Virus record (IMG/VR): IMGVR_UViG_3300049982_000336
Location: 1 to 55,784 of that record
Source of the DNA: a virus
Taxonomy: Duplodnaviria > Caudoviricetes
Length of the DNA: 55,784 bases
Reading direction: 5' to 3' (one strand)
The notes beneath the pieces are model-generated. The model saw only the letters and a list, made by a program, of their open reading frames with translations. It searched no databases and was not told the DNA's origin. Both the position numbers and the translations under genes were made by a program. Below are positions 11,740-55,784 of the stretch, one piece after another; within the stretch, counting starts at the first letter, position 1; each line of letters begins with the position of its first letter.

Positions 11740-11808
11740 CCATGAGGCGTCTTGCGGCATGTTGTTGCATATTGTAGCGTGAGCGCACGAGATGCGGCAA
11801 CACGCCGC
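11740..11808 (+). promoter_or_regulatory. Second early promoter with operator inverted repeat (copy 2)
   Basis: TTGCGG(11752-11757)-N17-TAGCGT(11775-11780); CGGCATGTTGTTGCATAT...AGATGCGGCAACACGCCG. Confidence 0.7.
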
Positions 11809-11836
11809 ACTCCTACCTCAGAGATAGGCCCCCGCA

Positions 11837-17687: not shown

Positions 17688-20285
17688 TTGACCGACACCG
17701 CCATCCTGGAAACCGCGATCCAGCTCCACGACGCAGGCCTGTGCGTCATCCCCGTCGCGGCCGATGGCCAGAAAAGACCCGCCGTCCGCTGGAGGCAGTA
17801 CACCGCCGCCGGGGGAGGCGAACCCCGCCCCGACCGCGACCAACTCGAAGCATGGTTCACCAACGGCCAATTCGACGGGCTCGGCATCGTCTGCGGCGCC
17901 GCGAGCGGCGGCCTGGAAATGCTCGAGTTCGAAGGCCGCGCCGTCCGCGAAGACGTCGCCGCCCGGCTCACCGAACTCGCCAACGGATCCGGTCTCGGCG
18001 ACCTGTGGCAGCGCGTCTGCTCCGGGTACATGGAAGCCACCCCCGGCGGAGGTATCCATCTGTACTACCGGGTGGCAGGAGACGACGCCCGCAACGCAAA
18101 ACTCGCCTCCCGCCCCGCCCGCGACGACGAGCTCGACGACCGCGAGCGCGCCGTCCGAGCCGAAAAGCCCCACGCCACCTTCACCCGCGTCCTGGTAGAG
18201 ACCCGCGCCGAAGGTGGCTTCGTCGTCGTCGCCCCGTCCGGCGGCCGCTCCCACCCCGACGGCGGCTCGTGGGTGCTCCTGGCCGGCGGCCCCAGCTCGA
18301 TCCCCACGCTCACCGTCGAAGAACGCGACGCCCTCCACCACCTGGGCGCCGCGTTCGACCAGATGCCCCTCCCCGACGCCACCCCAGCGGCCGCCGCCCC
18401 GCCGCCGAGCTCGCCCCTGTTCACCCAGCCCGCCTCGCCCTACGACGACGACGGAACCCCGCCCGGCACCGACTACAACGACCGCACCCGGTGGGAAGAC
18501 ATCCTCACCCCACGCGGCTGGACCCGGGTGTTCACCGACAGCCACGGCGTCACCTACTGGCGGCGCCCCGGCAAGAAGACCGGTTTCTCCGCGACCACCG
18601 GGCGCAACGACGCCGACAACCTGTACGTGTGGTCCACCTCCACCGAATTCGAAACTGAGCGGCCCTACGACAAGTTCGGCGCCCACACCCTCCTGGAGTA
18701 CGGGTCCACCAGCCCGGCCGCCCTCAGTAGCGCCGCGCAGGCCCTCGCCGCCGCCGGGTACGGCCACCGCCCCGAACCAACCAGGGCCGCCCCCGCCCCG
18801 GCCGCTCCGCCGCTCGTCGACCCCACCCCCGGCCCCGCCCCCACACCCGCCGTTGTTGTCGAGGAGCGCACCCTCGCGCACTCCGACGACGGCAACGCCC
18901 TCGACCTCGTGCAGGAGTACGGCACCGTCATCCGGTACGTGCCCGACCGTGGCCGGTGGCTCGCATGGACCGGCACTCTGTGGGAGTGGCAGCCCGTCAG
19001 CGGGGGATTGGTCCGCGAGTACGCCAAGCGCATCGCCCGCGCCCTCCCCGACGAAGACAAGGCCGCCACAGCGCACAAGAAGAAGGCGCTGTCCGCGAAC
19101 GGCGTCGGCGCCATGCTCACCCAGGCCGCCACCGACGTCCGCGTCGTCACCCCCTTCGACCAGCTCGACGCCCACCCCTGGGAGCTCAACACCCCCGCCG
19201 GCATCGTCGACCTCCGCACGGGCCTCCTCGGCCCCTCAGACGCCTCCCGCCTCCACACCAAGGTCACCAGGTGCGCCCCCGACTTCGGAGCCGACAGGGC
19301 CCGCTGGGAGGAGTTCCTGGCCGACACCTTCAACGGCGACGACGAGCTCGTCGGCTACCTCCAGCGGCTCGTCGGATACTCCGCTACCGGGTCCGTGGCC
19401 AAGCACGTCTTGCCCTTCGCCGTCGGCTCCGGCGGCAACGGTAAGGGCGTTTTCCTTGAATCGTTGACGGCTGTTCTCGGCGATTATGCGACCACCGCGC
19501 CGAGCGGATTCCTCATGGCCAAGGCCAGCATTCAACATGAGACGGAGATTGCACGCCTGGCCGGTATGAGAATGGTCGTGTGTAGTGAGGTCGCCGACGA
19601 TGACCGTTTCGATGAGGTGAAAGTCAAGCAGCTCACCGGTGGCGACACTTTGACGGCCCGTTTCATGAGGCAGGACCATTTCACTTTCCGCCCGTCCCAC
19701 CATTTGTGGCTCATGGGAAACCACCAGCCGACCGTCCGCGCGGGCGGTCGCGCGTTCTGGCGTCGCCTCCGGTTGATCCCGTTCTTGCACGAGGTGCCCA
19801 TCGAGCGGATGGTGGATGACCTGCAAGAACAGCTCGCCGCCGAGCACGGGCCCGCCCTGATGGCGTGGATCGTGCAGGGCGCCGCCGCGTACGCCGCGGG
19901 AGGCCTCCAGGAGCCTGAGAGCGTCACCGCCGCCACCGGGGCCTACGCCGCTGACCAGGACACCGTTGCCCGGTTCGTCGAGGAGATGTGCCACCTGGCC
20001 CCGGGCAGCGTCCAGGTGCAGATCAAGACGGCCCGGCTCCGCGAGGCCTACGAGAAGTGGGCCTACGGGGAAGGAGAGGAGCCGGTCTCGGCGAAGAAGC
20101 TCACCATGGAGCTCACCCGCCGGTACGCCATCGGGCAGACCCGAACCGGCACCGCCCGCTTCTACACAGGCATCACGATCATCGAAGACGAGCCGAACAC
20201 ATCTGTCACAGAGCCCGCCGAGCGGGCGCCGTTCGCACAACCGTCACAGCCCGAGCAGGACAAGATCGGCGGGCCAGGATGGTGA
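17688..20285 (+). CDS. Bifunctional primase-polymerase fused to a P4/D5-like SF3 helicase
   Basis: GLCVIP...KRP, TPGGGIHLYYR, ETRAEGGFVVVAPS; D5_N region; GSGGNGKG Walker A; KQLTGGD...ARFMRQD. Confidence 0.93.
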   Translation: MTDTAILETAIQLHDAGLCVIPVAADGQKRPAVRWRQYTAAGGGEPRPDRDQLEAWFTNGQFDGLGIVCGAASGGLEMLEFEGRAVREDVAARLTELANGSGLGDLWQRVCSGYMEATPGGGIHLYYRVAGDDARNAKLASRPARDDELDDRERAVRAEKPHATFTRVLVETRAEGGFVVVAPSGGRSHPDGGSWVLLAGGPSSIPTLTVEERDALHHLGAAFDQMPLPDATPAAAAPPPSSPLFTQPASPYDDDGTPPGTDYNDRTRWEDILTPRGWTRVFTDSHGVTYWRRPGKKTGFSATTGRNDADNLYVWSTSTEFETERPYDKFGAHTLLEYGSTSPAALSSAAQALAAAGYGHRPEPTRAAPAPAAPPLVDPTPGPAPTPAVVVEERTLAHSDDGNALDLVQEYGTVIRYVPDRGRWLAWTGTLWEWQPVSGGLVREYAKRIARALPDEDKAATAHKKKALSANGVGAMLTQAATDVRVVTPFDQLDAHPWELNTPAGIVDLRTGLLGPSDASRLHTKVTRCAPDFGADRARWEEFLADTFNGDDELVGYLQRLVGYSATGSVAKHVLPFAVGSGGNGKGVFLESLTAVLGDYATTAPSGFLMAKASIQHETEIARLAGMRMVVCSEVADDDRFDEVKVKQLTGGDTLTARFMRQDHFTFRPSHHLWLMGNHQPTVRAGGRAFWRRLRLIPFLHEVPIERMVDDLQEQLAAEHGPALMAWIVQGAAAYAAGGLQEPESVTAATGAYAADQDTVARFVEEMCHLAPGSVQVQIKTARLREAYEKWAYGEGEEPVSAKKLTMELTRRYAIGQTRTGTARFYTGITIIEDEPNTSVTEPAERAPFAQPSQPEQDKIGGPGW

Positions 20286-20525
20286 CCGGTCGCCACAGCA
20301 AGATCACGGCCCAGGGGATGACAGATGCATGTGTCACATCCGTCATCCCGACCACCTCACGTGTGAGCTGGGAAAACTCGGCTTCCCCGACCAGCGGTGT
20401 GACGGATGACAGATTTTCCCGCGTTCCCCCCTACGCGTGTGCGTATATGTGCGCCCGCGTGACGTGCGCGCACGCACCTAAGGGCTCATATGGGAGTACC
20501 TGTCACAACTGTCATCCGTCAGGGC
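20200..20525. other. Putative replication origin (iterons plus alternating purine/pyrimidine tract)
   Basis: Multiple TGACA/TGACG repeats in both orientations, e.g. GTGACGGATGACAG 20399-20412 and CTGTCATCCGTCA 20509-20521, directly after the primase-helicase. Confidence 0.8.
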
Positions 20526-20532
20526 AGCCATC

Positions 20533-20889
20533 ATGATCTTCATGACGACCCCGGCCGTCCTCGACACCTGCCACCGATGCGGCCGGCCCCTCCTCATCGG
20601 CCACTCCGAAGGCCTCCACACCCGCGCCACCGCCACACCGATCGACCCCCTGGGCGAAGTCGAAGCCCTCGGCGCCGGCCTGTTCACCTACGACGTCCAA
20701 CTCGAAGGCCTACCCCGGCGGCCGCACCTGATCTACCGATGCCAATTCAGAATCCGCGCACCACGCAAATGGAATGTGGTCGCCGCTCACCGATGTCCAC
20801 CGGGCCCGCATTTCCCCGTCCGACCCGGCCCGCCGATTGAACTGTCCGTCCCGTACGGGGTGCCCGACCCTGACCAGCCGCCGTTCTGA
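20533..20889 (+). CDS. Hypothetical Zn-binding protein
   Basis: CHRCG...AAHRC, C-terminal PPF. Confidence 0.7.
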   Translation: MIFMTTPAVLDTCHRCGRPLLIGHSEGLHTRATATPIDPLGEVEALGAGLFTYDVQLEGLPRRPHLIYRCQFRIRAPRKWNVVAAHRCPPGPHFPVRPGPPIELSVPYGVPDPDQPPF

Positions 20890-22033: not shown

Positions 22034-22501
22034 GTGCCAGCACCCATCCCCGACGACACCCGCGCCGCCATCCTTGAGGACATCACGGCTAGTGAGAAGT
22101 CGCGAGCGCAGATCTCGCGTGACCACGCAGTAAGTACGACCAGCGTCAGCAAGATTGCCAAAGACGCAGGGATCGTCTCGCCGTTCTCTCGGGAGAAGAC
22201 CAAAAAGGCGACTGAGGCCAGCATCGTCGATCACAAGGCGCGGTTGTCCAAGGCGGCCCGGCGTTCCCTCGGCGTGTTCGAGACGATCATCGGTTCGTAC
22301 GAGAAGATGACCAGCGCGCAGTGGGACAAGGTCCATCCGCGTGATCGCGGCATTATCGCTGGCATCATGGCCGACAAGGCGCGCGAGCTCGAACCACCAG
22401 ACGACAACGGCGCGGCCGCCGGACGCAGCATGCTCGGCGCGCTGGCCGCCGGCCTGCAACTCGCCTACGACCAGCTCCCCCCCGATGACGATCAATCTTG
22501 A
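22034..22501 (+). CDS. Terminase small subunit (HTH type)
   Basis: N-terminal HTH (SRAQISRDHAVSTTSVSKIAK), overlaps terL. Confidence 0.75.
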   Translation: MPAPIPDDTRAAILEDITASEKSRAQISRDHAVSTTSVSKIAKDAGIVSPFSREKTKKATEASIVDHKARLSKAARRSLGVFETIIGSYEKMTSAQWDKVHPRDRGIIAGIMADKARELEPPDDNGAAAGRSMLGALAAGLQLAYDQLPPDDDQS

Positions 22502-34083: not shown

Positions 34084-35466
34084 ATGGCCTGGACCCTCAT
34101 CGACTCCGACGCCGCCGGGTTCCAGGCCGATGCCGGCGGTGGCCACGTCTACACCTTCCCCCGGGTGGGAGCTCCGACTCCTGGTGACCTGGACGTCGTC
34201 TTCGTCAACAGCAACACCGTCATGGACACCACCCCCTCCGGGTGGACTCTGGCGCTCAACCCTGTCATCAACCAGGGCACCTACGCCCTGTGGCGCACCG
34301 CGGCCGGCGGCGAGAGCGACAACGTCGTCATCGACATGGGCGGCAACTTCAACACCATCGTCAGCTGGTCGCGCTGGTCTGGCGCCCAGGGCCTGGACGT
34401 CGCGATTGAAGCCCACGCAGACGGCTCACCAGCGTCGGTCACCCCGAGCGTTTCCACTGGCACCCTGGCCGGGACCGGCGAGCTCGTCATCGCGGCCGCC
34501 CTCCTCCAGGGGTCGTTCCCCACCGTCACCCCGTCGTGGAGCTCCGGCTACACGCCCCTGACCGGCACGCAGTTCAACGGCGGCCCTGCCGACGAGGTCT
34601 CCGCCTACGTCGCCTACCGCACCGACGGCGGCACCGCGGCGGAGACACCCCAAGCGGACTGGACGTCCGCCCCGACCGCGCCGATCTCCGATCGGTACAT
34701 CCACGTCCTGGTCTTCACCCCCACGTCTGCCACCACGGACGCGACCGCGACCCCCGCCAGCGTCGACGCCACGGCCGCCGTCCCCTCGGTGACCGTCTCC
34801 ACGGGCGCCACCCCAACGCCGGCACCCCTCGCGGCCGCCGCAGCGGTTCCGGCGCCTGCCGTGTCCGTGCAGTCCCAGGCCACCGTGACACCGGCTGCGG
34901 TCGTCGCCGTCGCCGCGGTCCCCGGCCCGGACGTTTCGACCGGCGCGACGGCGACACCCGGCCCGGTCGCAGCTGCCACCACGTTCTCAACACCAGCGGT
35001 ATCCGCAGGAGCGACAGCCACGCCGGCCGCCGTCACGGCCATCACCGACCTGCCTCTGCTTTCGGTGATCGCCCAGGTGGCCAACACGGTCACCCCGTCA
35101 ACCATTGCCGCCACCGCCGACGTACCGCTCCCCGCAGTGGCCACCCAGACCGACGCCACCGCCGCCCCGTCGACCATCGTCGCGACCTCGGTTGTTTCTG
35201 CGCCTTCGGTGGTCGCAGAGTCGAACGCCACTGCCGCACCTGGCCCGGTGGCCGCGGTGGCTGCCCTGTTGTCCCCGCTGGTCTCGGTGGGCGTCACGGT
35301 GACACGCAGCACGGTCGCTGCCGTTGCGACCGTCCCGACGCCGCGTGCCGGCGAGGTGTTCCCTTTCGGCGGCTGGGGCGTGCTCACCGCGGGCGTCGCC
35401 GCGAAGTCGACGCTCACAGCGGGTGTCGCCGCCACCTCGACGTTGCTCGCGACCGTCAGCCCGTAG
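34084..35466 (+). CDS. Putative virion fibre: N-terminal beta domain plus A/T/V/P repeats
   Basis: About ten ~22-24 aa repeats (ATATPxxVAAxAAVPxPxVS). Confidence 0.75.
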   Translation: MAWTLIDSDAAGFQADAGGGHVYTFPRVGAPTPGDLDVVFVNSNTVMDTTPSGWTLALNPVINQGTYALWRTAAGGESDNVVIDMGGNFNTIVSWSRWSGAQGLDVAIEAHADGSPASVTPSVSTGTLAGTGELVIAAALLQGSFPTVTPSWSSGYTPLTGTQFNGGPADEVSAYVAYRTDGGTAAETPQADWTSAPTAPISDRYIHVLVFTPTSATTDATATPASVDATAAVPSVTVSTGATPTPAPLAAAAAVPAPAVSVQSQATVTPAAVVAVAAVPGPDVSTGATATPGPVAAATTFSTPAVSAGATATPAAVTAITDLPLLSVIAQVANTVTPSTIAATADVPLPAVATQTDATAAPSTIVATSVVSAPSVVAESNATAAPGPVAAVAALLSPLVSVGVTVTRSTVAAVATVPTPRAGEVFPFGGWGVLTAGVAAKSTLTAGVAATSTLLATVSP

Positions 35467-42051: not shown

Positions 42052-43893
42052 GTGACGGTTGCGATTGACGCGTCCTCCCCATCGCTGCAAGCAGGATTGT
42101 CCAACTCGCTCACCACGTCGGCATTCAACCCGCCCGACAACAGCGTGCTGGTCGCGGTCGTCATCCGCAGCACCGGCACGACGATCAGCACCAACGGCAC
42201 AGCACTGACGTGGACCTCCCGCAAGGAGGACACCGACAGCGGCAACATCGAGATCTTCACCGCGCCCCTGGTAACTGGGCGCACCGGGATGACGGTTACG
42301 GCATCCGGCGCCACCACCGGTGAACTCGCCCTCAAGGTGTACGTCATCACCGGCGGCGACCTGAGTAACCCCGTGGGCGCGACGGGTAGCGGCACCAGCA
42401 CCGCCAACGCACCCAACGTCACCGGATACACCTCAACGGTCGCAGGATCGCGAGGCATCTGCGGCGCGTTCGACCAGTCCGCCCGCGGCCTCCCGACCAG
42501 CACCGACGACGAGGCCGGCTACAACCTGTTCTCGTCGGGCATGTCGGTGGCCAAGGCCGCCAACACCACCCCGGCCGGCACCGCCGTCACCTTCAACTTG
42601 GACGCGGGCGGCACGAGCACCGGCAACTGGTATTGGATCGCCGTCGAGATCCTCCCCCTCGCCGCAGTCCCTGCCACCGCCACACCCTCCGACGTCGCCG
42701 CGGCCGCCGCCGTACCCGCCCCCACGCTGTCGACGGGCTCCACCGTCACCCCGTCCCCGGTGGCCGCCGTCGCCGCGGTGCCCGACCCTGGAGTGTCCGG
42801 CGGAGCCACCGCCACCCCGGGTGCCGTCGCCGCGACCACCACCGTTCCGTCGCCAGTCATCGCGACCGGCGGCAACATCACCATCGCCGTCGACACGATC
42901 GCCGCGGTTGCCAGCGTCCTGACCCCCACCGTGCTGGCCGGCACCACGGCCACCCCGGACGCGGTGGCAGCCGTCGCCACAGTGCCCCTGCCGCACATCC
43001 AGCTTCCCGAGCACGTCAACGTCGCGCCGGCACCGCTCGCCGTGGTGGTCGCCGTACCGCCGCCCGTCATCTCCACGCCGATCCTGCCCGGTGCGAACAT
43101 CACCCGCCCCGGACAGCTGGAGTACGACGGGTTCGTCATCGGTTCGGGCACCCCTTACCGGATGATCGGGCTCGCCGGGTTCGACGACCTGCCGAACGCG
43201 GACAGTGGCAACTCCGCGGAGCCTGCCGACCACGGGTCCCGACCCGGTCGCACCCTGGCCCGGGACCGCGTGCTCACCTGGACAGGGTTCATCGACTGCC
43301 CGCCGGAGCAGTTCGAGGCCGCGCGTAACGCCCTGGTGAACGCTACTCCGTACCCGCGTGGCGCCGAGGACCTGCCGATCGCCGTGCGCGTGCTGTCCAC
43401 CACCTACCTGGTGTACGGCAAGATCGCGCCGGGCGGGCGGATCATCAGCATGGGCAAGGGCTACAGGCTCGGATACGCACCCGTTGCCCTGCAGTTCCTG
43501 TGCGCCGACCCGCGCATCTACGGGATCACAATCCGCACCGCCGACCTGGCCAACGGCGGCACGATCAGCGTGCTCAACACCGGCAACACCGAGACCAGAC
43601 CCTCGTTCAGGATCCCGGGGCCCGCGGTGAACCCCACGTTGCGCGTGGTCGACACCGGGCGCACCATGCGGTTCGGCATCAACCTGGCGGCCGGCGAGTA
43701 CATCGACGTCGACTGCCGCGCCGGATCCGCGCTGTGGATGGGCGAGGTTAACGTTCTGGCCGCACTGGCCAATTCCACCTCAGTGCCGCCGCATCTGTTC
43801 GAGTTCCTGCCCGGGACATCCCAGGTCACCTACTCGGCGACCGGGGGCAGCGTGCCGGTGATCAACGTGCTGTGGCGGGACGCCACCCAGTGA
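42052..43893 (+). CDS. Distal tail (Dit)-like protein with an N-terminal fibre-like extension
   Basis: C-half GQLEYDG...GFDDLP...LQFLCADPRIY...NTGNTETRP; N-half beta domain plus A/T/V/P repeats. Confidence 0.75.
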   Translation: MTVAIDASSPSLQAGLSNSLTTSAFNPPDNSVLVAVVIRSTGTTISTNGTALTWTSRKEDTDSGNIEIFTAPLVTGRTGMTVTASGATTGELALKVYVITGGDLSNPVGATGSGTSTANAPNVTGYTSTVAGSRGICGAFDQSARGLPTSTDDEAGYNLFSSGMSVAKAANTTPAGTAVTFNLDAGGTSTGNWYWIAVEILPLAAVPATATPSDVAAAAAVPAPTLSTGSTVTPSPVAAVAAVPDPGVSGGATATPGAVAATTTVPSPVIATGGNITIAVDTIAAVASVLTPTVLAGTTATPDAVAAVATVPLPHIQLPEHVNVAPAPLAVVVAVPPPVISTPILPGANITRPGQLEYDGFVIGSGTPYRMIGLAGFDDLPNADSGNSAEPADHGSRPGRTLARDRVLTWTGFIDCPPEQFEAARNALVNATPYPRGAEDLPIAVRVLSTTYLVYGKIAPGGRIISMGKGYRLGYAPVALQFLCADPRIYGITIRTADLANGGTISVLNTGNTETRPSFRIPGPAVNPTLRVVDTGRTMRFGINLAAGEYIDVDCRAGSALWMGEVNVLAALANSTSVPPHLFEFLPGTSQVTYSATGGSVPVINVLWRDATQ

Positions 43894-47205: not shown

Positions 47206-47434
47206 ACGAGCCTTCACCCCGCCTCCTCCCGAACCGCAGGACGCACCCGAGGATCTCGCCGAGGCCCGCAAGGCACGCGAAACCAGCGAGCAAGGGCTTG
47301 CCGAGGTGTGCGGACGCTGGCCGGAGATCAACCGCCTGGGCGAGACCCACAGGCGGCACCGCGCCGACAACCACTTCCTGGAGATGTTCGAACAGGCCGT
47401 GAAGGGAGGCGGTGGTGATCCAACTCGCCGGTAG
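47186..47434 (+). CDS. Lysis-cassette hypothetical protein
   Basis: GGAGGAGG RBS; RWPEI...NHFLEM. Confidence 0.65.
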   Translation: MIRWRPRRAFTPPPPEPQDAPEDLAEARKARETSEQGLAEVCGRWPEINRLGETHRRHRADNHFLEMFEQAVKGGGGDPTRR

Positions 47435-47729
47435 CGTCCTCATCGTCATCACTGCGATCCTGGCCACTGCCTGCCCCGTCGTCTACGGCGTCTTCCACCG
47501 CTGGTGGCGGTCGGCGACCGGCCGGCACATCTTCTCCTTCATGGCTGCCCTCGCCGTCCCGCTCGACCTGGCTGTGATCCGGCTTGTCCTGGGTGATTCC
47601 GTCGTCTTCCAGCTGATCCGCCTGGCCGCGTTCACGCTGCTGCCATGGGTCCTGGCCTGGCGACTCCTCATTCTCGTCAAAGCCGTCATCGCCGAACGAA
47701 AGCAAGGAAAGGAAGGCGACAGCCGATGA
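47415..47729 (+). CDS. Putative holin (3 TM)
   Basis: Three hydrophobic helices, WWRSATGRH, basic tail, upstream of the endolysin. Confidence 0.7.
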   Translation: MIQLAGSVLIVITAILATACPVVYGVFHRWWRSATGRHIFSFMAALAVPLDLAVIRLVLGDSVVFQLIRLAAFTLLPWVLAWRLLILVKAVIAERKQGKEGDSR

Positions 47730-47890
47730 CCGACCCTGCATCTCCTGAAGAGTCGGAGGCCGAGCTCGTCGCTCGCGGCGTCGACCGACGCGACTGGGAG
47801 GCCACCGAGGACGACGAAGAGGACGTCCTGCGCGAGCTGTACGGCCCGCCAGACGACGATGGCATCTACAGAGGTGTGAGGTCGCAGTGA
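47726..47890 (+). CDS. Small acidic protein
   Basis: Coupled on both sides; DEEDVLRELYGPPDDDGIYRG. Confidence 0.65.
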   Translation: MTDPASPEESEAELVARGVDRRDWEATEDDEEDVLRELYGPPDDDGIYRGVRSQ

Positions 47891-48708
47891 GCGCGCCCGA
47901 GATGCTGGCCGTGGCGCGCAAGTCCCTCGGATTGACGGGCCGGCCGAACTACATCACCCGCGAGTACGCCAAGAGACACGGCAACGAGTTCCTGGACGCT
48001 GCGTGGTGCGACATGTCGGTGACGTACTGGGCCCGGCATAGCGGCAACGAGGCCGCGGTGCTGCCCTTCGGGGACCGGGCCTACACCGTGGCGCACGCCG
48101 AGGACGGGCACCGCCTCGGCCGGTGGCATGCCGGCACAGTGGCCAACATCAAGAAGTACGCCTGCCCGGCCGGGCTGATCCTCTTCGACTGGGACGGCAC
48201 CGACAACAGGGCCGCGATCGACCACATTGGGATCATCGAGCACGTCCTGAGCGACGGCCGGGTGCAGACCATCGAGGCCAACACCGGCAACGCCTGCAAG
48301 CGCCGTGTGCGCTCGGCGGACGTCATCGCCGGATTTTGGAACCCCGACTACGAGGAGGAGGACGACATGCCCAGTGCGAAGGAAGTGGCGGACGCCGTCT
48401 ACGAGCGGCTGACCGGCACCGTCACCAAGGACGTGTGGGCTGCCCGCGAGGGCCTCCTGGACGTCGGCACCAAGCTGGACCCGAAGACCGCGCTCAGGCA
48501 GATCTGGGCGTACGGCAAGGACGGATACGCCCGCGACCGGGAGATCCTCGCCCGGCTCGACGCCCAGAACGCCACGATCAACACCCTGGTAGACGCGCTC
48601 GCCGCCCGGGATACCACGATCGACGCTGACGCCCTGGTGGCCAGGATCCGCGAGGAGATCGCGGGTATCACCGTCCACCTGGACGCCGGCGGCGCCCCCA
48701 CCGAGTAG
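47887..48708 (+). CDS. Endolysin, CHAP domain
   Basis: AWCDM (Cys), DHIGII (His), TIEANT. Confidence 0.88.
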   Translation: MSAPEMLAVARKSLGLTGRPNYITREYAKRHGNEFLDAAWCDMSVTYWARHSGNEAAVLPFGDRAYTVAHAEDGHRLGRWHAGTVANIKKYACPAGLILFDWDGTDNRAAIDHIGIIEHVLSDGRVQTIEANTGNACKRRVRSADVIAGFWNPDYEEEDDMPSAKEVADAVYERLTGTVTKDVWAAREGLLDVGTKLDPKTALRQIWAYGKDGYARDREILARLDAQNATINTLVDALAARDTTIDADALVARIREEIAGITVHLDAGGAPTE

Positions 48709-48723
48709 CCGTCCGAGAACCCG

Positions 48724-48958
48724 GTGACACATCTGTCATCGGGCCCGCAGTGGGGTTGACCTGCGGAAATCACCTTCACCACCCCCTGATCTGTGACGGA
48801 TGACAGTTTCATGCCTGTTATCAGCCCCGCGTACGCGCGCACACGTACGTGAGAGGGAACGCGGGAAAACCTGTCATCCGTCACGGCCGCAGCGCCTGAA
48901 CCGCTGTTTCCCCAGTTCAGACCGGCAGTCCTACCTGTGACACATCTGTCATCCCCTG
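48724..48958. repeat. Second, inverted ori-like iteron element
   Basis: 48855-48884 is the reverse complement of 20399-20428 at 29/30. Bounded by 17-bp direct repeats GTGACACATCTGTCATC (48724-48740, 48937-48953). Confidence 0.9.
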
Positions 48959-48970
48959 AAGGAGTCCCCT

Positions 48971-49240
48971 ATGTACGCGTCCGTCATCCGCACCGTCGTG
49001 CCGCTCATCGTCGGCATCCTGGTCACCAACGCCCTCAAGCTCGGCGTCCAGCTCCCCGAGGGCAGCGTCACCGAGATCGTCACCGTGCTCGTGTCGGGCG
49101 CGTACTACTGGGTGTTCCGCTACGCCGAGCAGTTCAAGCCGCTGCTCGGCCGTATCTTCCTGGCCCTCGGCGCGACGGCCAAGCAGCCCGTCTACGTCCA
49201 GCCGGGCAGCGTCCAGCCGATCGGCGAGCGTCGCCTGTAA
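48971..49240 (+). CDS. Holin-like two-TM protein
   Basis: SVIRTVVPLIVG...AYYWVFRYAEQ...QPVY; AAGGAG RBS. Confidence 0.75.
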   Translation: MYASVIRTVVPLIVGILVTNALKLGVQLPEGSVTEIVTVLVSGAYYWVFRYAEQFKPLLGRIFLALGATAKQPVYVQPGSVQPIGERRL

Positions 49241-49327: not shown

Positions 49328-49870
49328 TCAAATCCGGCCGAGCAGCTCGCCCTTCTTGGCGTCGAACTCCTGCGGTGTGAGGATCCCGGCGTCCCGGAGC
49401 TCACCGAGCTTCGCCAGCTGCGCATAGACGTCGCCGCCGCCGGCCGGAGCAGGTTCCGGTGCCGCGGCGGGTTGGGCAGGGGCATGTCCGGGTGAGATCC
49501 GATCCCGCAGCGCGTCGGCCAGCTGCTTGCCGTCCTTCTTGTCCATGCTCTTGATCTCGGCCTTGTTGCCGGACGCGAACACGATCATCGTTCCGAGCAG
49601 CATGCCGGAGGACCACTGCACGGACGAGATCTTCTCCAGCGGGAAATCCTCGGTGCTCTTCGACATCACGCCGTCCTTGACGAACAGCATCCGCCGGTCG
49701 GTCAGCGCCACCAGGCCGGTGCCCGGACCGTACTGCCCGGAAGCCAGGAAATCGACGCGCTCGCTCTCCCACAGGTACTCGATCAGCCGGCGGATCTCCC
49801 GCTTGGCCCCGAGCTTGGTCTGCATACGGGCCATGGCCGCCGCGATGTCGGGGCGGAGCTCATCGCTCAC
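49328..49870 (-). CDS. Moron: bacterial PH domain plus SHOCT domain
   Basis: GLVALTDRRMLFV...FPLEKISSV; QLAKLGELRDAGILTPQEFDAKKGELL. Confidence 0.88.
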   Translation of the reverse strand: MSDELRPDIAAAMARMQTKLGAKREIRRLIEYLWESERVDFLASGQYGPGTGLVALTDRRMLFVKDGVMSKSTEDFPLEKISSVQWSSGMLLGTMIVFASGNKAEIKSMDKKDGKQLADALRDRISPGHAPAQPAAAPEPAPAGGGDVYAQLAKLGELRDAGILTPQEFDAKKGELLGRI

Positions 49871-49941
49871 GTGAATTCCTCCTGGGGTCCCGGGGGTGCG
49901 ATAGGTAGACGCGCGACTGCCGCAAATCGTTGACCGCGTGT

Positions 49942-50376
49942 TCAGCCTGCGCCGATGGCCCCGCCGATGGCTGCGCTGATGACGCCCGTGACGACGTCCC
50001 GGCCGCCTTCGGCCAGCCAGGCGCCGAGGGCCTTCAGCTTGGTTCGCTTCTCCGGGTCGGACTCCTGCTCGGCCGCCTGGAGGATGGCGTCGCGGACGGT
50101 GGTTGTGAAGCTGTCGGGGGTCGGCCAGAACTCGGCCGCCCGCTTCCCGTTGCCGTTGGCCCGCTTGATGTACTCGTGGAAGTCGGCCAGGGAGCCATCC
50201 GTTTCGATGTAGGGCTCATCCGCCAGGGAGTGGACGGCACGGCGGACGGTGTCGGCGTCGAAACCGGTGGCGCCCTCGACCTGCTTACGGGGGATGGGCT
50301 GGCCGGGGTTCTCGTCCTTCAGCTGCACGATGGCCTGAAGGACCGGTAAGTCTCGCTGGTACCACATGTCGGTCAT
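49942..50376 (-). CDS. Moron: hypothetical wHTH-like protein
   Basis: WYQRDLPVLQAI...WPTPD...DPEKRTKLK. Confidence 0.7.
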   Translation of the reverse strand: MTDMWYQRDLPVLQAIVQLKDENPGQPIPRKQVEGATGFDADTVRRAVHSLADEPYIETDGSLADFHEYIKRANGNGKRAAEFWPTPDSFTTTVRDAILQAAEQESDPEKRTKLKALGAWLAEGGRDVVTGVISAAIGGAIGAG

Positions 50377-50430
50377 AAGCGGAAAGTGTCGCATTGGGCA
50401 CTGATCGTTATCCGCGGATTGGGTTATCTG

Positions 50431-50721
50431 TCAGCCGGCGGGAGGTGGCTCCTCGGTTGGCCGGGCCTGGGTTGCTTCCTTGCCGACGGTGGGTTCCCGG
50501 AGTCGCTCGACTCCCTCGGCGCGCGCGATGCGGCGGAACACTTCGTCGGTCATTCCCGTCAGCTTGGCCAGCTGGCCCACGGTCGCCCGGCCGGCCTTGA
50601 GCTCGCGGGCCGCCATCTCCTTCACCGGCTCTCTGAGGGCGCGCTCGCCGTCGAGGTAGCGCTTGTAGCGGGCGAAGAGCGCGGCTGCGTCGTCGGGAGG
50701 CGTGTAGTCACTGCGGGCCAT
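50431..50721 (-). CDS. Small HTH regulator divergent from the transfer operon
   Basis: ATVGQLAKLTGMTDEVFRRIAR. Confidence 0.75.
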   Translation of the reverse strand: MARSDYTPPDDAAALFARYKRYLDGERALREPVKEMAARELKAGRATVGQLAKLTGMTDEVFRRIARAEGVERLREPTVGKEATQARPTEEPPPAG

Positions 50722-50743
50722 GGGCTCATGTTGACACAGGTTG

Positions 50744-50825
50744 CAGGCCTATGGGTAGGCCGAACAGACAATTTTCAGAACTACCTGTTGGCCTATTGAC
50801 AGGCCAACTCGTTGGCCTACATACT
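50744..50825. promoter_or_regulatory. Divergent promoter with a palindromic operator
   Basis: TTGACA(50796-50801)-N18-CATACT(50820-50825) containing AGGCCAAC-TC-GTTGGCCT, with further AGGCC/GGCCT half-sites nearby. Confidence 0.8.
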
Positions 50826-50866
50826 TGAGTCATCGCCAAGGGGAACCGACACAGGGAGCAGCCAAG

Positions 50867-51157
50867 ATGAACGCCACCGCCACCACCGCCCGGATGACCG
50901 ACACCGAGCTCACCATCCTGGGTGTCACGGTCGTCCGCGACGAGGACGGCGCCGAGTACACCTTCCAGGGTGTGACGGTCGGCGAGCGGGACCACGGCGG
51001 CTACCTGGTCACCTACGCCGACCTGGCGCTCGCCGCCACCGACAGCCGGTGGATCGACGCCACCCCCGAGCGGGTGCTCGCGTACGAGCTGCCCGGCGAC
51101 GAGATCACCTGGGCCGACCGGGACGCCGCGATCCTCACCGCCCTCGCCACCCTCTGA
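50867..51157 (+). CDS. Hypothetical protein
   Basis: GGGAG RBS, first gene after the promoter. Confidence 0.7.
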   Translation: MNATATTARMTDTELTILGVTVVRDEDGAEYTFQGVTVGERDHGGYLVTYADLALAATDSRWIDATPERVLAYELPGDEITWADRDAAILTALATL

Positions 51158-51220
51158 CCTGCCCGGCGCGTCCCTCCCGGAGGGGCGCGCCCCCACCCCG
51201 CTGATCTACAAGGAGAGTCG

Positions 51221-51493
51221 ATGACCGAGAACACGCGATGCACCTTCACGTGGTGCACCACCAAGCACGACGCGATCGACGTCGACCACCAGGGCGACCC
51301 TCACACGATGCATTTGGCCGCGGGCGGCGAGCTGTGGCCCGAGTTGTTCCAGCACCCGGGCAGCCCCGTGGTCGTCTCGCTCAGCTCCCGCAGCAGCCAG
51401 AACGAGGCGGGTGAGGTCGACATGACCCTCGACGAGACGGAGGTGTTTGCCAACCACCTGCTCGAGCTCGTCCGTAAGGGACGCACCCCCTAA
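51221..51493 (+). CDS. CxxxWC..H protein (DUF6907-like, AICE-type)
   Basis: CTFTWCTTKH...H; AAGGAG RBS. Confidence 0.65.
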   Translation: MTENTRCTFTWCTTKHDAIDVDHQGDPHTMHLAAGGELWPELFQHPGSPVVVSLSSRSSQNEAGEVDMTLDETEVFANHLLELVRKGRTP

Positions 51494-51575
51494 CACGCGA
51501 CGGCCCCGGGCCGGCGACCCTACCGCCGCCCCGGGGCCTGGACCCCATCCCCTGACTTCACCAGGAGAGAGACCC

Positions 51576-51899
51576 ATGCCGACCGTACCCTTTGCCCCCT
51601 GCGCCGTCCCCTGGTGCCAGGGCAACCACCCGGGCAGCCCCGGCACCCACACCGGGAGCCTGGACTCCTTCCAGGTCGCCGACGCCACCGTCACCGCCGC
51701 CCTGCGCCAGGAGGCCGACGCCCCCGCGGTCGTCCGCGTGCTCGTCGAGGTCCCGGGCCGGGCCCGGCACCTGGATGTGGCCGTTGAGACGGCGGCCGCG
51801 CTCGGCCACATCATCACCGCGCTGGGCACGCCGACCGTGTTCGACTTCGCCGCGGCGCTCACCCGGGCCGCCACCCTGCGCGCCCAGGGGCACGCGTGA
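51576..51899 (+). CDS. CxxPWC..H protein (paralog-like)
   Basis: CAVPWCQGNH...H; AGGAG RBS. Confidence 0.65.
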   Translation: MPTVPFAPCAVPWCQGNHPGSPGTHTGSLDSFQVADATVTAALRQEADAPAVVRVLVEVPGRARHLDVAVETAAALGHIITALGTPTVFDFAAALTRAATLRAQGHA

Positions 51900-52738
51900 A
51901 CACCGCGGCCGGGCGGCCGGCCCGCCGGTGGCCCCTGCTGCTGCTCGCCCTCCCGGCCGGCGTCGCCACCTGGTCCGGCTGGGTCGGCCTCGGCGAGCTC
52001 ACCGGCTTCGGCCCCGTCAAGCCGCTCCCCGGCATCAGCGACTTCACGATCAACACGGCGATCACGCTGCCGATCGGCGTGGAGACCTACGCGGCGTACG
52101 CGCTCGGGGCGTGGCTGTCGCACAGCTCGCGGATCAGCGACGGCACCCGCGGGTTCGCGAAATGGTCCGCCTTCGGCGCGCTGCTGCTCGGTATGCTCGG
52201 CCAGGTCGCCTACCACCTCCTGGTCACCTTCGACTTGAAGGTGACGCCGTGGGAGATTGTCACGGCTGTGTCGTGTCTGCCGGTGCTCGTGCTGGGCATG
52301 GGGGCCGGGCTCGGGCATCTGCTCGCCCGCGACTCCCATGCGGTCACCGTCGAGCCGGCGGCAGCAGTCGAGGTGTTGTCCGGGTACGTACCTGAGCCGC
52401 CCGCGGCGCCCCGGGTGCCGGTTAGCCAAGAGGTGTACGACTGGGCTGCCGAGCGCGACGCGTTCCCCCCTGACGCCGCCCCCACGCCCCCCGTGGTCGT
52501 CGACATCCCGGCCGTCGTACCCGTCGCGGCGCCGGAGCTGGAGGCCGAGCCGGAGACCGTCGAGTACGTACCCGGCGAGACGTCCAGCGCTCTGCTCCAC
52601 CAGGCGGCGAATCGGTTCTTCTACGAGATCGCGGGCGGCAAGGTGCCCGGGGTCCGCCAGCTCAAGGCGGAGCTCGCCATCGGCCAGGACAAAGCCCAGC
52701 AGGTCAGGGCGTACCTGTCCCGGCTCGCCACCCAGTAA
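51896..52738 (+). CDS. Spd-like (spread) membrane protein: 4 TM plus C-terminal HTH
   Basis: Four TM helices, Pro/Val linker, KVPGVRQLKAELAIGQDKAQQVR; directly upstream of the TraB-like gene. Confidence 0.7.
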   Translation: MNTAAGRPARRWPLLLLALPAGVATWSGWVGLGELTGFGPVKPLPGISDFTINTAITLPIGVETYAAYALGAWLSHSSRISDGTRGFAKWSAFGALLLGMLGQVAYHLLVTFDLKVTPWEIVTAVSCLPVLVLGMGAGLGHLLARDSHAVTVEPAAAVEVLSGYVPEPPAAPRVPVSQEVYDWAAERDAFPPDAAPTPPVVVDIPAVVPVAAPELEAEPETVEYVPGETSSALLHQAANRFFYEIAGGKVPGVRQLKAELAIGQDKAQQVRAYLSRLATQ

Positions 52739-53146
52739 CCCCTGTACCCCGCCCCCGGGTCATTGCCTGCAAGCCGTACCCGGGGGCGGACCTCCCGAAC
52801 CAACAGGAGATCACCAATCATGACTCAAGCCCTCCAAGAGCACGACACCACCGAGATGTTTCCCCGGCGCCAGACCCCACCGGAGTTCTGGCGGCGACCC
52901 AAGCGGGTACGCGTACCCGTCCGTCGGATCGTCCACCGGGTACGGCAGGGCAAGTACCTGCGCCGCGGCGGACGGTTCGCCTACCGCACCGTCACCGCTC
53001 CGCTGTCCGGGGTCGCGCTGCTGGCCCGCCTGTTCTGGCGGTGGGTACGCGCCGACGACTACGCGGGCACCGAGGACCACATCTTCCGCGAGGCGGTACG
53101 GACGCGCCGGCGCCGTACCGCGTGGTGGGCGTTCGCCGGGTACCTG
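52381..53146. repeat. GTAC-cored repeat cluster (GTACC[C/T]G / CGGGTAC)
   Basis: 17 GTAC counted by eye in about 760 bp across the spd 3' half, the intergenic region and the traB 5' end. Confidence 0.7.
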
Positions 53147-54634
53147 ACGGCCACGGCATCCTCGACGATGTGGTCGACCTCGGCTCCCGTGCTGTCGCTC
53201 GGCGTCGTGGTGTCGCTCGGCACCACCGTTGAAGTCCGCCGGCGGATCGTCGAACGCCCAACGCCGCTGAAGCTTCCGGGGTTCGGCAAGACGCCCGCGG
53301 AGAACACCGTCACCCGAGCGGCCATCGCCGCCAAGCTCGGTGGCGCCGAGGGGATGCGGCTTGCCGCGCCGATCGTCACCGAGCCGGGCGGCTGGGCGAC
53401 GGTTTTGCAGCTGCCCGGCGGGCAGCGCGCGCGGAAGGCTCTCGGCAAGGAACCCGACTTCGCTTCGGCGCTCGGCGTCGGCGAGACACAGGTGGTCTTC
53501 GAGCTGATCCCCGCGCACGCGGGGCGCCTGGAGGTGTTCGTCGCCAAGTCCGACCCCTTCCTGAAGGTGTACCCCTCGCCCCTGCTCGGCCGCACCGAAC
53601 CGCTCGACTTCTGGGCTGGTGTCCCCGCCGGGGTCAACGGCCGCGGCCGGCCGGAAACGCTGCGCCTGGTCGACGCGTCCCTCCTGGTGGCAGGGGAGCC
53701 GCGCGCGGGCAAGTCGGCTGCGGTGAACGGCATCATCGGGGCGGCTGCGCTAGCGGTCACCCCGAAGATCCACCTGTGGGACGGCAAGGGCGCCGGGGAT
53801 CACCGGCCGTGGCGGAAGATCGCCCACACGGCCGAGAAGCGCAACGCCGCCGGGCTGCTCGCGCACCTCCAGAAGATGCAGGCGCAGATGGAACGCGTCT
53901 TCGACCTGCTCGACCAGGCGGGCGGATCCACCAAGCTCACACCAGAGCTGTGCCGCCGCTTCGGCGTCGATGTGGAGCTGACCGTGGTGGATGAGACCCG
54001 GTATTACGTCACGTCGCCGTGGGGGGAGGAGATCGTCGAAGCCGCGGTGGACATCGCGAGCCGCGGCCCGGCCGCCGGGATTCTGCTCGTGTTGGCCTCG
54101 CAGCGGATGACCACCGACGCGATCCCCGGTCCGCTCAAGGGTGTGTGCTCGCTGCGCTGGGCGATGCGCTGCCCCGACACCACCGCCTCCAACGCTGTGC
54201 TAGGCCAGGGCGCGGCCGGCGCCGGGTACAACGCCTCGGAGATCCCGCGCTCCCACCGCGGCGTCGGCATCCTCGACGCCGACGGCTCCGACCCGGTCAA
54301 GGTCCGGTCGTACTTCCTTGACGACCAGGGCCCCGACCTGATGGCCGTCGCCGATGCGGCTTATGCGCTTCGGCTCGCGGCCGGCACGCTGCCCAACCGG
54401 GTGCAGGACAAGCCGGTCGAAGACCCGGTGATGAAAATCCTCGCCGCGTTCGGAGAAGACGAGCGGCTCCACACCGCCGAGCTGGCCGAGCGGCTGGGCG
54501 ACGGATGGAACCCCTCCCGGATCGCTGAGGCGCTGCGGCCGTACGGCATCGCCCCGGGCGACGTGAAGATCAGCGGCATTAACCGGAACGGCTACCGCCG
54601 GCAGGACCTCGAATCGGTCCTTGACAGCGTCTGA
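52820..54634 (+). CDS. traB: TraB-like FtsK/SpoIIIE DNA translocase
   Basis: N-terminal TMs, AGEPRAGKS, DGKG, VVDE, GPAAGI.L.LASQR, C-terminal wHTH. Confidence 0.85.
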   Translation: MTQALQEHDTTEMFPRRQTPPEFWRRPKRVRVPVRRIVHRVRQGKYLRRGGRFAYRTVTAPLSGVALLARLFWRWVRADDYAGTEDHIFREAVRTRRRRTAWWAFAGYLTATASSTMWSTSAPVLSLGVVVSLGTTVEVRRRIVERPTPLKLPGFGKTPAENTVTRAAIAAKLGGAEGMRLAAPIVTEPGGWATVLQLPGGQRARKALGKEPDFASALGVGETQVVFELIPAHAGRLEVFVAKSDPFLKVYPSPLLGRTEPLDFWAGVPAGVNGRGRPETLRLVDASLLVAGEPRAGKSAAVNGIIGAAALAVTPKIHLWDGKGAGDHRPWRKIAHTAEKRNAAGLLAHLQKMQAQMERVFDLLDQAGGSTKLTPELCRRFGVDVELTVVDETRYYVTSPWGEEIVEAAVDIASRGPAAGILLVLASQRMTTDAIPGPLKGVCSLRWAMRCPDTTASNAVLGQGAAGAGYNASEIPRSHRGVGILDADGSDPVKVRSYFLDDQGPDLMAVADAAYALRLAAGTLPNRVQDKPVEDPVMKILAAFGEDERLHTAELAERLGDGWNPSRIAEALRPYGIAPGDVKISGINRNGYRRQDLESVLDSV

Positions 54635-54641
54635 CCCCACC

Positions 54642-54717
54642 TCTACCTCGCCTCTACCGCCGTAACAGGGTCTACCCGCCATCTACCGTCTCCCACCTGG
54701 GCGGTAGGGCCGGTAGA
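54642..54717. repeat. TCTACC repeat cluster after traB (clt-like)
   Basis: TCTACC at 54642, 54653, 54671 and 54682; inverted GGTAG[G/A] at 54703 and 54712. Confidence 0.7.
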
Positions 54718-54779
54718 CCCGTTGGCGTGTTCCCTGCTCAACCTATCCAGGGAGCCCGAGAGGCTCCGAAAGGAACACT

Positions 54780-54962
54780 GTGGAACTGTTCGCCGTCCTG
54801 GCCATACTGCTCGTCGCATATCTGATGTGGGACCGGCGCCGGCACCCGATGAAACGCTGCCCAGCATGCCGTCGCTCACCCGGCCGGAAGCTCAGCGGGT
54901 GGAACTCGCAGGCGTACGGGGCGTGCCGGCGCTGCGGCGGCAAGGGGGAGGTGCGCAGGTAG
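54780..54962 (+). CDS. Small TM plus Zn-finger protein
   Basis: TM segment then CPAC...CRRCGGKG; AAAGGA RBS. Confidence 0.7.
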   Translation: MELFAVLAILLVAYLMWDRRRHPMKRCPACRRSPGRKLSGWNSQAYGACRRCGGKGEVRR

Positions 54963-55056
54963 CGCTCAGCCAGGCGACACCCGCCGGTCCTTGACGGATG
55001 GCCTGCCCACGCTGACCATGACGAGAAGTCCGGAGAATATTCACAGGAGGCCGAGC

Positions 55057-55254
55057 ATGAAACTACGTTTTCTCGGTACCACCTCGAAGGACGGGGACTG
55101 CCCCACCCTGTACGCCACCGACCGCGGCACGATCGTCGTCCAGGGCTACCAGGTCACCGACCCCGAAGCGCTCGACCAGCTCCGCGACGTCCTCCCTGGC
55201 GAGACGTTCGTCGAGGTCCCTCGCGAGCTGCTGAAGTTCGCCGAACCGGAGTAG
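55057..55254 (+). CDS. Small conserved actinomycete protein (DUF6879 partner)
   Basis: LRFLG...GDCPTLYATD...VVQG...GETFVEVP; AGGAGG RBS. Confidence 0.8.
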   Translation: MKLRFLGTTSKDGDCPTLYATDRGTIVVQGYQVTDPEALDQLRDVLPGETFVEVPRELLKFAEPE

Positions 55255-55256
55255 GC

Positions 55257-55784
55257 GTGCCCCTCACCCGCGACGAGTTCCAGCGGCTCTTCGTCACGTT
55301 CGAGCACACCGCGTTCCGGCTGGAGGTGCGCGACTTCTACAACATCGCGGGTGAGGCCGACGACTTTCAGCGGTTCCTCAACGGCGAGCACCTGGACAAG
55401 CGCGCCGAGGCCGAGGCCCGCCGGCCGTGGCTCGACAAGATGCGGGCTGCCACCGCCGCGGGCAAACGGGTGGAGCGGGTGCGCGTGGTCACCGAGCCGC
55501 TCAGCGACTACCTGCGCTTCGAAATGGAGGGCACCGACCTCAACATCGCTGCTGGCGAGGACATCCGCTACCTGCCTCGCCAGCACACGGCCGCCGCCCA
55601 GCTGCCCGGCCACGACTTTTGGTTGTTCGACTCCTCGCGCCTGGTCCTCATGCGCTTCGACGACCAGGCCCGCCCCCTGCCGTACGAACTGGTCACTGAC
55701 CCTGCGACGGTGGTCGAGCACTGTTTTTGGCGTGACACCGCCTGGCATTACGCCGTTCCCCATGACCGGTATGCGGCCCGCTGA
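55257..55784 (+). CDS. DUF6879-family protein
   Basis: FEHTAFRLEVRDFY, RVRVVTEPLSDYLRFE, AGEDIRYLPR, LPGHDFWLFDS. Confidence 0.85.
   Translation: MPLTRDEFQRLFVTFEHTAFRLEVRDFYNIAGEADDFQRFLNGEHLDKRAEAEARRPWLDKMRAATAAGKRVERVRVVTEPLSDYLRFEMEGTDLNIAAGEDIRYLPRQHTAAAQLPGHDFWLFDSSRLVLMRFDDQARPLPYELVTDPATVVEHCFWRDTAWHYAVPHDRYAAR

Follow-up and report, generated by a model that had tools for sequence, protein, structure and literature searches.

The DNA analysed here (the window) is a complete IMG/VR provirus record of 55,784 bp (IMGVR_UViG_3300049982_000336), with a guanine-plus-cytosine (GC) content of 68% and nearly all of its genes on the plus strand, and it carries two copies of one origin-type element. 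The first, locus A (20286..20532), lies directly downstream of a primase-helicase gene, starting at its stop codon, and is very probably a replication origin, as judged from its sequence and that of its relatives. The second, locus B (48709..48970), is not next to this initiator gene, being 28.4 kb away in the gap behind an endolysin gene, and is a second complete copy of that element, probably a working replication element. An initial annotation of the window had described locus B as a second, inverted copy of the replication origin; the observation is confirmed, and the interpretation placed on it is partly supported.

Anatomy of the Two Loci

Loci A and B follow a common plan, in which tandem 7-mers (RTGACRG) face one another around a dyad-symmetric core of alternating purines and pyrimidines, with at least two short repeats per side in opposite orientation, and in which an outer palindromic site and a conserved box accompany the 7-mers. 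In locus A, the outer palindromic site (20318-20346), which carries a 4-nt insertion, is followed by the box (20363-20377), the inner tandem 7-mers (20399-20412), a T-rich/TTCCC stretch (20413-20431), the purine/pyrimidine dyad core, which extends up to 20508, and the facing inner 7-mers (20509-20522); this locus is without a right arm. Locus B has both arms complete, with outer palindromes at 48724-48739 and 48937-48952, the box at 48756-48770 and a mirror box at 48906-48921, inner tandem 7-mers at 48793-48806 facing those at 48871-48884, and a core (48807-48870) comprising a purine/pyrimidine run (48828-48851) and a GGGAAC/A-rich stretch (48851-48870). It holds two perfect 14-mers and two identical 16-mers, and every motif block is intact.

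The relationship between the loci was recovered by several routes. The match of 48855-48884 to 20399-20428 at 29 of 30 positions, reported in the initial annotation, was returned by blastn (expectation value, E, 4e-9) together with a further 16/16 match at 48943-48958, and a repeat search of the window gave inverted arms of 37 nt (20399-20435 and 48848-48884) that are 89% complementary. Reading of the sequence bore out two further statements, namely that the reverse complement of 48935-48958 equals the sequence from 20312 onward save a 4-nt insertion, and that facing iterons surround an alternating purine/pyrimidine tract in both regions. The iterons have also been kept while the spacers diverged, as had been noted, with 52 of 60 positions identical between A and B in the motif blocks and 44 of 100 in the remainder.

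Within the window, GATGACAG occurs eight times against 1.62 expected, a count that 0 of 100 shuffles reached, and seven of the eight matches fall within loci A and B. The 16-mer GTGACACATCTGTCAT, at up to three mismatches, was found four times (0.18 expected), each time within the two loci; the same holds for the four matches of the 14-mer GTGACGGATGACAG at up to one mismatch, for which the reversed control gave none, and at up to three mismatches this 14-mer shows no enrichment in the window (seven found, 7.2 expected). Of all alternating purine/pyrimidine runs in the window, the three longest are one of 24 nt in B and two of 23 and 16 nt in A, the fourth reaching 12 nt, and the hairpin z-scores of the DNA against shuffles are -5.7 (48793-48884) and -4.9 (48715-48965) for B and -4.1 for A.

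The Element Behind the Primase Gene in Relatives

A search of IMG/VR with the primase protein yielded 23 loci, of which 17 were read (L013-L029), and 16 full records were assembled (G001-G016); the excluded loci were L016 (a 9-kb contig), L030 (1.2 kb) and L031-L035 (partial matches at no more than 42% identity). An endolysin-based search gave two loci only and was left unused. A genome collection added 39 loci, and the eight closest genomes (G017-G024; primase 63-68% identical), prophages of Streptosporangiaceae from Streptosporangium, Nonomuraea, Planomonospora and Microbispora, were taken, with the window and G001, as the clade.

The same type of element stands directly behind the primase stop codon in 17 of 17 IMG/VR loci and in eight of eight clade genome loci shown. 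In the 17 loci, the non-coding stretch after the primase gene contains short direct and inverted repeats around a T-rich/TTCCC stretch and a purine/pyrimidine tract, followed by a gene for a small CxxC protein, and in all 17 records, the window included, at least three distinct 8-mers are each present at least three times in this region, a count made without a shuffle control. The repeat sequence itself is lineage-specific, being RTGACRG here and ATGACGC, AGTGACAGC, CAGTGCC, CAGTGCCCG, GGTGGCGC or others elsewhere. It is this presence of the same element type next to every related primase gene examined, and its fit to the published origins of Staphylococcus aureus pathogenicity islands (SaPI) and of pRN1, that argues for locus A as an origin, and the architecture common to both loci supports the earlier view that locus B is an element of the same kind.

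An alignment of 20 elements (11 first copies and nine second copies) gives the order of the parts. From the left, these are an outer palindromic pair (TGACrgATccGTCATC), the box (CTGA[G/C]CTG[G/C]gaAAA), an inner tandem pair (TGACrGATGACAG), the T-rich/TTCCC stretch, the purine/pyrimidine dyad core, a GGGAA/A-rich stretch and the facing inner tandem pair (CTGTCATCCGTCA). Across the aligned elements the repeat unit is a 7-mer, and the majority fractions are 0.81-0.93 in the motif blocks versus 0.63 elsewhere. A right arm, made up of the mirror box and a second outer palindrome, is present in six of the nine second copies, that of locus B included, and in one first copy, that of G018; the other first copies run directly into the CxxC gene. 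This gene, which in the window encodes 118 amino acids (20533..20889, plus strand; phrog_10480, function unknown), is always the first after copy 1 (loci L013-L029 and L203-L210), and tblastn found homologues in the same place in six of the 16 other records.

Two side observations concern the margins of the element. A repeat-like site, ACACATCTGTCAC (20197..20209), lies within the 3' end of the primase open reading frame (ORF), and the corresponding ORF ends in L013, L015 and L203-L210 also embed repeat half-sites, encoding DPSS or TSVT-like peptides ahead of a conserved ...GGPGW end, so that the left arm of copy 1 reaches into the gene. A GATC-bearing 'CAAGATC'-like motif is often found just 5' of the left inner repeats (L013-L029, L203-L210), including those of distant relatives with other repeat types; the version in locus B is CTGATCTG at 48785-48792.

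Second Copies in the Clade

By whole-genome search, G017, G018, G019, G020, G022, G023 and G024 each proved to have a second copy, and among the 17 IMG/VR records a second element was detected, by blastn and by 8-mer clusters, only in the window and G001. Ten clade genomes were judged, namely G017-G024, the window (G000) and G001, with G003 omitted on account of its completeness of 49% and of an origin almost the same as in G021; the pair is present in nine of them (the window, G001 and the seven genomes just named), and the expectation of a pair in relatives is thus upheld. A single repeat type is common to all two-copy genomes, and in relatives whose repeats are of another type one copy was seen. 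When the pattern of facing inner sites was sought in 401 genomes of the family of G017, it matched only G017, G018, G020, G022 and G024, the controls giving 0; four of these five genomes have two elements 25.5-29.4 kb apart, and G018 has one match at up to one mismatch.

The record boundaries matter for such counts. G024 is the genome behind the IMG/VR record G002, and their first-copy sequences are identical; the second copy of G024 lies 29.2 kb downstream (C15:11377-11538), about 0.4 kb past the end of the G002 record and at the element edge, and absences in provirus records therefore need caution. Locus B of the window, with both its flanks, is bridged by contigs of two runs from a second study at about 99% identity (sequencing runs were compared as contigs), one of the bridging contigs being 13.6 kb long, with 154 differences and 12 gaps. 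A blastn search in 'distant' mode with locus B and its flanks gave no match among public phages, an exact 14-mer scan of viral contigs gave only single chance matches among the at least 118 stretches listed, and the literature searched holds no description of a paired origin in actinobacterial prophages.

Some candidates were set aside. Weak 8-mer clusters in six records (G004, G008, G013, G014, G015 and G016) are coding-like and without the architecture of the element, and were dismissed by eye. That locus B is a mobile element was rejected, as its flanking 16-mers belong to the two-armed origin seen in relatives, and no orphan copies were met elsewhere in the eight clade whole genomes, nor did the remaining 396 genomes of the sampled family show any. 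A clt site for an FtsK/TraB-like protein was likewise rejected, the element following the primase gene even in relatives without that gene.

A distant second cluster of the same repeats, with about eight 7-mers and conserved in nine of ten clade genomes, is also what would be expected if B exerted a negative control over copy number or timing, titrating the initiator or handcuffing A, for instance during lysogeny or soon after induction. Extra iteron clusters restrain initiation in plasmids such as P1, where incA has this role. For titration, the repeats alone would suffice, whereas B also keeps the box, the TTCCC/GGGAA stretches and the dyad core, and for this reason such a control seems to us rather improbable.

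Positions of the Second Copies

In the window, B is preceded by an endolysin gene with a CHAP domain (47887..48708, plus strand; phrog_21825 endolysin, E 5e-36; CHAP at 25.5 bits, slightly below the cut-off of 26) and followed by a gene for a small hydrophobic protein of 89 amino acids (48971..49240, plus strand), which has a GAAGGAG ribosome-binding site at 48958-48964, no match in Pfam or NCBIfam and, as its sole family match, phrog_10742, of unknown function. The initial annotation had placed the element between endolysin and holin; the endolysin side of this description stands, and the identification of the next gene as the holin does not, since the holin predicted by Pfam (PF23778 Phage_holin_2, E 2.6e-18) lies upstream of the endolysin gene (47412..47729, plus strand).

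Among relatives the site varies. In the window and G018, the second copy has an endolysin-type gene before it and the gene of a small membrane protein after it (the 89-residue product and that of the gene after copy 2 in G018 share no significant similarity, E 0.026 over 15 amino acids); in G017 it stands slightly upstream of the lysis genes, and in G001, G019 and G023 directly after the integrase stop codon. In G020, G022 and G024, it directly follows a small GntR gene (assigned by PF00392 in G024 and by likeness to the eye in G020 and G022), adjoins an FtsK-like gene and lies at the element's far end, with host-looking neighbours, one of which, in G024, is presumably an IMP dehydrogenase gene. 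The control of holin expression that had been suggested for B, or of the lysis genes more generally, is not supported by this comparison, since the second copy keeps no constant position with respect to the lysis genes and just two of nine second copies sit between an endolysin and a small membrane-protein gene.

On the circle, all second-copy sites are found in a single stretch that reaches from the lysis genes, across the attachment site, to the integrase and repressor genes. The first copy, immediately behind the primase gene, marks the place where early genes give way to late ones. Measured in elements that are about 44 kb long, the second copy is 25.5-29.4 kb downstream of the first, through the late genes, or about 13-15 kb upstream, through the early genes. 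The two copies bracket an early arm and a late arm of about one third and two thirds and are not diametrically opposite, contrary to the near-opposite geometry first proposed.

The situation of both loci at operon boundaries brings to mind a transcriptional element, in which A and B would be promoter or operator regions whose 7-mers bind a phage regulator (e.g., the CxxC protein), B controlling the gene of the 89-residue membrane protein; the outer site at 48937-48952 sits 6 nt upstream of the ribosome-binding site of that gene. A crude consensus scan found no sigma-70-like promoter or intrinsic terminator at either locus, the second copy adjoins unrelated genes in relatives (integrase, GntR and tail genes), the origin repeats are absent from the divergent repressor/cro-type region, where other repeats are found, and all relatives shown have the element tied to the 3' end of their primase gene. 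Given these points, we regard a transcriptional role as quite unlikely.

Paralogy of the Two Copies

The initial annotation had treated B as a diverged duplicate of A, and this part of it was not sustained. The best partner of a second copy is the second copy of another genome in seven of nine cases, and locus B itself scores 62.5-67 with the second copies of G023, G019, G001 and G020 and 50.5 with A; the exceptions, which pair best with the resident first copy, are G018 (90% identity), whose pair has probably been converted, and G022. Similarly, the first copies of two-copy genomes have another first copy as best partner in six of nine cases. As the second copies are mostly closer to each other than to the resident first copy, the two copies are, on these alignments, old paralogs kept side by side and not a fresh duplication. 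The core variants differ within the window, that of A being like the first copies of G022 and G017 and the left core of B like G020 and G024 ('TGTTATC'), which makes the shared 'TTTTCCCGCGTTCCC' look inverted. The description of B as an inverted copy applies to the core alone; the left arm of B (outer site, box and inner site) is collinear with A in plus orientation.

Varying positions of the second copy among relatives, different core variants in A and B, and mosaic similarity in one IMG/VR neighbour pair could also be read as traces of arm exchange between related phages at conserved origins, B being a recombination linker left over from it and functionless now. A relic would fit poorly with the intact motif blocks of B, amid spacers that have drifted to 44% identity, with the retention of a distinct paralog lineage in nine of ten clade genomes, and with the failure to see any decayed copies in the eight clade whole genomes searched; on these grounds there seems little prospect that B is one.

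The Initiator Protein and a Proposed Mechanism

The primase-helicase gene (17688..20285, plus strand) encodes 865 amino acids with PF09250, PF08706 and PF19263 matches and with matches to the PHROG DNA primase families, its domains being PrimPol, D5_N, a DUF5906/SF3 helicase and a C-terminal winged helix. The protein matches TIGR01613 (phage/plasmid primase, P4 family) with E 8.7e-87 and 290.8 bits against a cut-off of 108.7, and its best sequence match in the PDB, a weak one (E 0.0066), is SaPI5 PriRep5 (7OLA). Folding of the C-terminus from a single sequence was poor (predicted local distance difference test, pLDDT, 44.6), and it was refolded from a 34-row alignment; the resulting model is a winged helix with a mean pLDDT of 77.8 and residues 60-140 above 87. 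Foldseek matched this model to the DNA-binding domain of RFX (1dp7; template modelling score 0.75 on the target over 76 residues, E 1.5e-3, probability 1.0) and also to the PrimPol of African swine fever virus. An initiator with an SF3 helicase and a predicted C-terminal winged helix is therefore encoded in the same element as the two loci. By eye, the sequence groups of the winged helix track the repeat groups, a correspondence confounded by phylogeny.

By analogy with homologous systems, the winged helix of the primase-helicase would recognise the 7-mer RTGACRG; this 7-mer forms a tandem pair on either side of the core, the two pairs facing one another, and palindromic pairs farther out, in the outer arms. 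Two hexamers would then load head to head and open the dyad-symmetric alternating purine/pyrimidine core of about 65-95 bp, which may extrude as a hairpin or cruciform, and the PrimPol domain would prime. Locus B would be a second place of binding and assembly for the phage primase-helicase. We consider it somewhat more probable than its negation that B and A act jointly in replication, B being either a second origin that fires or a partner in cis that loops to A in the manner of crr and ori in P4.

Several observations weigh against this account. G021 has no second copy in its whole genome, as searched with five queries including its own origin; one copy was found in each of the 13 IMG/VR records of distant relatives with the same gene order (G004-G016), eight of which are at least 93% complete, three of these with terminal repeats; and one copy only was seen in six whole genomes with primases 47-53% identical. 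Indirectly, G021 and the single-copy distant relatives speak against a second site being needed throughout this initiator family. The cores, at 59-60% GC in a window of 68%, are not AT-rich in absolute terms, and hold an alternating purine/pyrimidine dyad with strong hairpin potential and no AT tract. Another protein could read the repeats, e.g., the CxxC protein encoded beside copy 1, whose gene co-occurs with them as tightly as the primase gene does. The GC skew shows no turn at A or B and is uninformative here, nearly all genes being on one strand. Finally, the right arm, mostly confined to second copies, inflates the copy-to-copy scores, so that part of the paralog signal is architecture.

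A bolder version would make the duplicated origin an obligate two-site system, in which the two-armed second copy, always near the attachment site, is the true bidirectional origin and the half-armed copy a crr-like site of loading or looping. We hold this to be unlikely; if it is true, the edge copies of G020, G022 and G024 could fire before excision and amplify the flanking host DNA.

Other Features of the Window

The window opens with a tyrosine integrase gene (1-1008), followed near 1.5-2.3 kb by a divergent pair of cI-type and cro/xis-type genes, identified by reading the sequence alone; the large terminase gene is at 22341-23768. Three genes on the minus strand (49328-50721) separate the lysis region from a further plus-strand block with an FtsK/SpoIIIE-like gene (52763-54634; PF01580) and then a DUF6879 gene (55257-55784) at the window end. 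The whole of 49328-55784 may be prophage, a neighbouring element or a hybrid. The FtsK/SpoIIIE-like gene has homologues at 68-80% amino acid identity in G002/G024 and G020, in reverse orientation, and the small GntR gene that adjoins these homologues brings to mind the Kor/Tra pairs of conjugative elements in actinomycetes (AICE review PMC2440964). The DUF6879 homologue of G017 (L243, oriented 9918-10460; about 42-47% identity in tblastx segments) comes after the lysis genes, beside an XRE-type gene. At the GC content of the window, tblastx of the second-copy neighbourhoods against it was noisy, and only the FtsK-like and DUF6879 matches were kept.

Other repeats of the window are distinct in kind. 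A 71-nt direct repeat with 77% identity (2012-2082 and 11740-11810) is intergenic and upstream of plus-strand genes, one copy sitting where the repressor/cro-type genes diverge; both copies are candidates for early promoters or operators, separate from the origin 7-mers. An 83-nt direct repeat with 73% identity (11844-11926 and 12318-12400) is contained in an ORF of 580 amino acids (11837-13579), and a 103-nt repeat family (60-73% identical, at 66- and 138-nt spacing) occupies 34742-35330 and 42674-42980 in two late genes about 7.4 kb apart, probably as the repeated domains common to tail or fibre proteins. Scans of the window for tRNA genes and Rfam families found none, and no convincing direct repeats that could be attachment sites were seen between the ends of the window, G001 or G024.

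Implications

The origins of temperate actinobacterial phages are almost unmapped, and that of the present family can be recognised by eye. Lineage-specific repeats beside a P4-family PrimPol-helicase offer a system in which to study how an SF3 primase-helicase chooses and opens its origin, and the paired copies allow the role of a second site to be asked, whether as an origin, a looping partner like crr of P4 or a fork barrier like oriR of SPP1. They also raise the question of what keeps the second site in the neighbourhood of the attachment site despite shifts in its precise place. In annotation, the element could serve as a mark of such prophages, and the comparison of G002 with G024 illustrates that it can reveal where a provirus record stops short.

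Comparison With Known Systems

In SaPI origins, as set out in the excerpted account (PMC9371898), six to 12 iterons lie directly downstream of rep. Each side of a central region has at least two, those of one side pointing against those of the other, and it is the winged helix at the C-terminus of Rep that reads them. The likeness to the window consists in the iterons directly behind the initiator ORF, as at locus A, in the facing pairs, and in PriRep5 being the best PDB match of the primase-helicase, weak as that similarity is. The difference is that the same excerpts describe one origin with an AT-rich centre, whereas the window has two loci, each with an alternating purine/pyrimidine dyad. 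The origin of pRN1, in the portion of the source used (PMC4234260), is a stem-loop of about 100 bp located 3' of a rep gene for a prim-pol/SF3/winged-helix protein; it works when moved, and a similar arrangement is also noted in some phages. The domain order of the initiator is the same, and the cores of A and B fold as DNA hairpins far better than shuffles; on the other side, that portion of the source describes one origin and does not describe iteron arms, whereas the window has two loci with them.

Two like-organised origins in one genome, the second in an intergenic segment of the late region, are found both in the window and in SPP1, where, in the parts of PMC6316719 drawn on here, oriL is part of the initiator gene and oriR, about 13 kb away on a circular 44-kb genome, lies between genes of the late region, and the same origin-binding protein binds both. 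Fork stalling at gp38-bound oriR has been proposed there as a replication switch (PMC6316719, PMC3485210, as excerpted). Transferred to the window, this gives the main rival of the preferred reading, namely a programmed fork barrier to which the initiator binds tightly without firing, so that the fork from A stalls at B and its processing switches theta replication to a concatemer-producing sigma mode for packaging. The precedent fits in outline, with two similar origins and a comparable geometry (the two copies lie about 13-15 kb apart by the shorter way, the elements being about 44 kb long). B, however, keeps the full core and both arms and is more symmetric than A, where a pure barrier would need neither, and single-copy relatives must make their concatemers otherwise. 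The SPP1 initiator system is moreover unrelated: that virulent phage, according to the excerpts, uses gp38, the loader gp39 and the DnaB-type helicase gp40 on direct repeats with an AT-rich unwinding element, whereas the window, scanned only partly for gp38- and gp40-like genes, has a PrimPol/SF3 fusion as initiator in place of a gp38-type protein with a DnaB-type helicase. On balance, we think a fork barrier improbable.

For the preferred reading, in which B acts in replication with A, the closest relative system is that of P4, the analogy drawn in the initial annotation, which proved apt. P4 replication needs crr in cis. The C-terminal half of the P4 initiator is homologous to the window protein (TIGR01613), and both genomes have two separated clusters of one repeat, one of them directly 3' of the initiator gene. 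In the P4 record (X51522), crr, labelled 'cis required region' in a feature note, occupies 4291-4590; attP and int are its neighbours, and the 3' end of the alpha gene (4636-6969, minus strand) directly adjoins it. The ori cluster (9086-9809) lies about 4.5 kb from crr, both clusters consisting of the same octamer in both orientations. The systems differ in that ori and crr of P4 are unlike in layout, crr being two 120-bp direct repeats, whereas the loci of the window are copies of one composite palindromic element; in the separation, 13-29 kb in the clade against about 4.5 kb; and in the N-terminal primase, which in the window is an AEP PrimPol. Taken together, the element pair appears to be a conserved two-copy origin system in one clade of prophages with P4-family PrimPol-helicases, a variant on the ori/crr arrangement of P4, the oriL/oriR pair of SPP1 and the SaPI-type origins.

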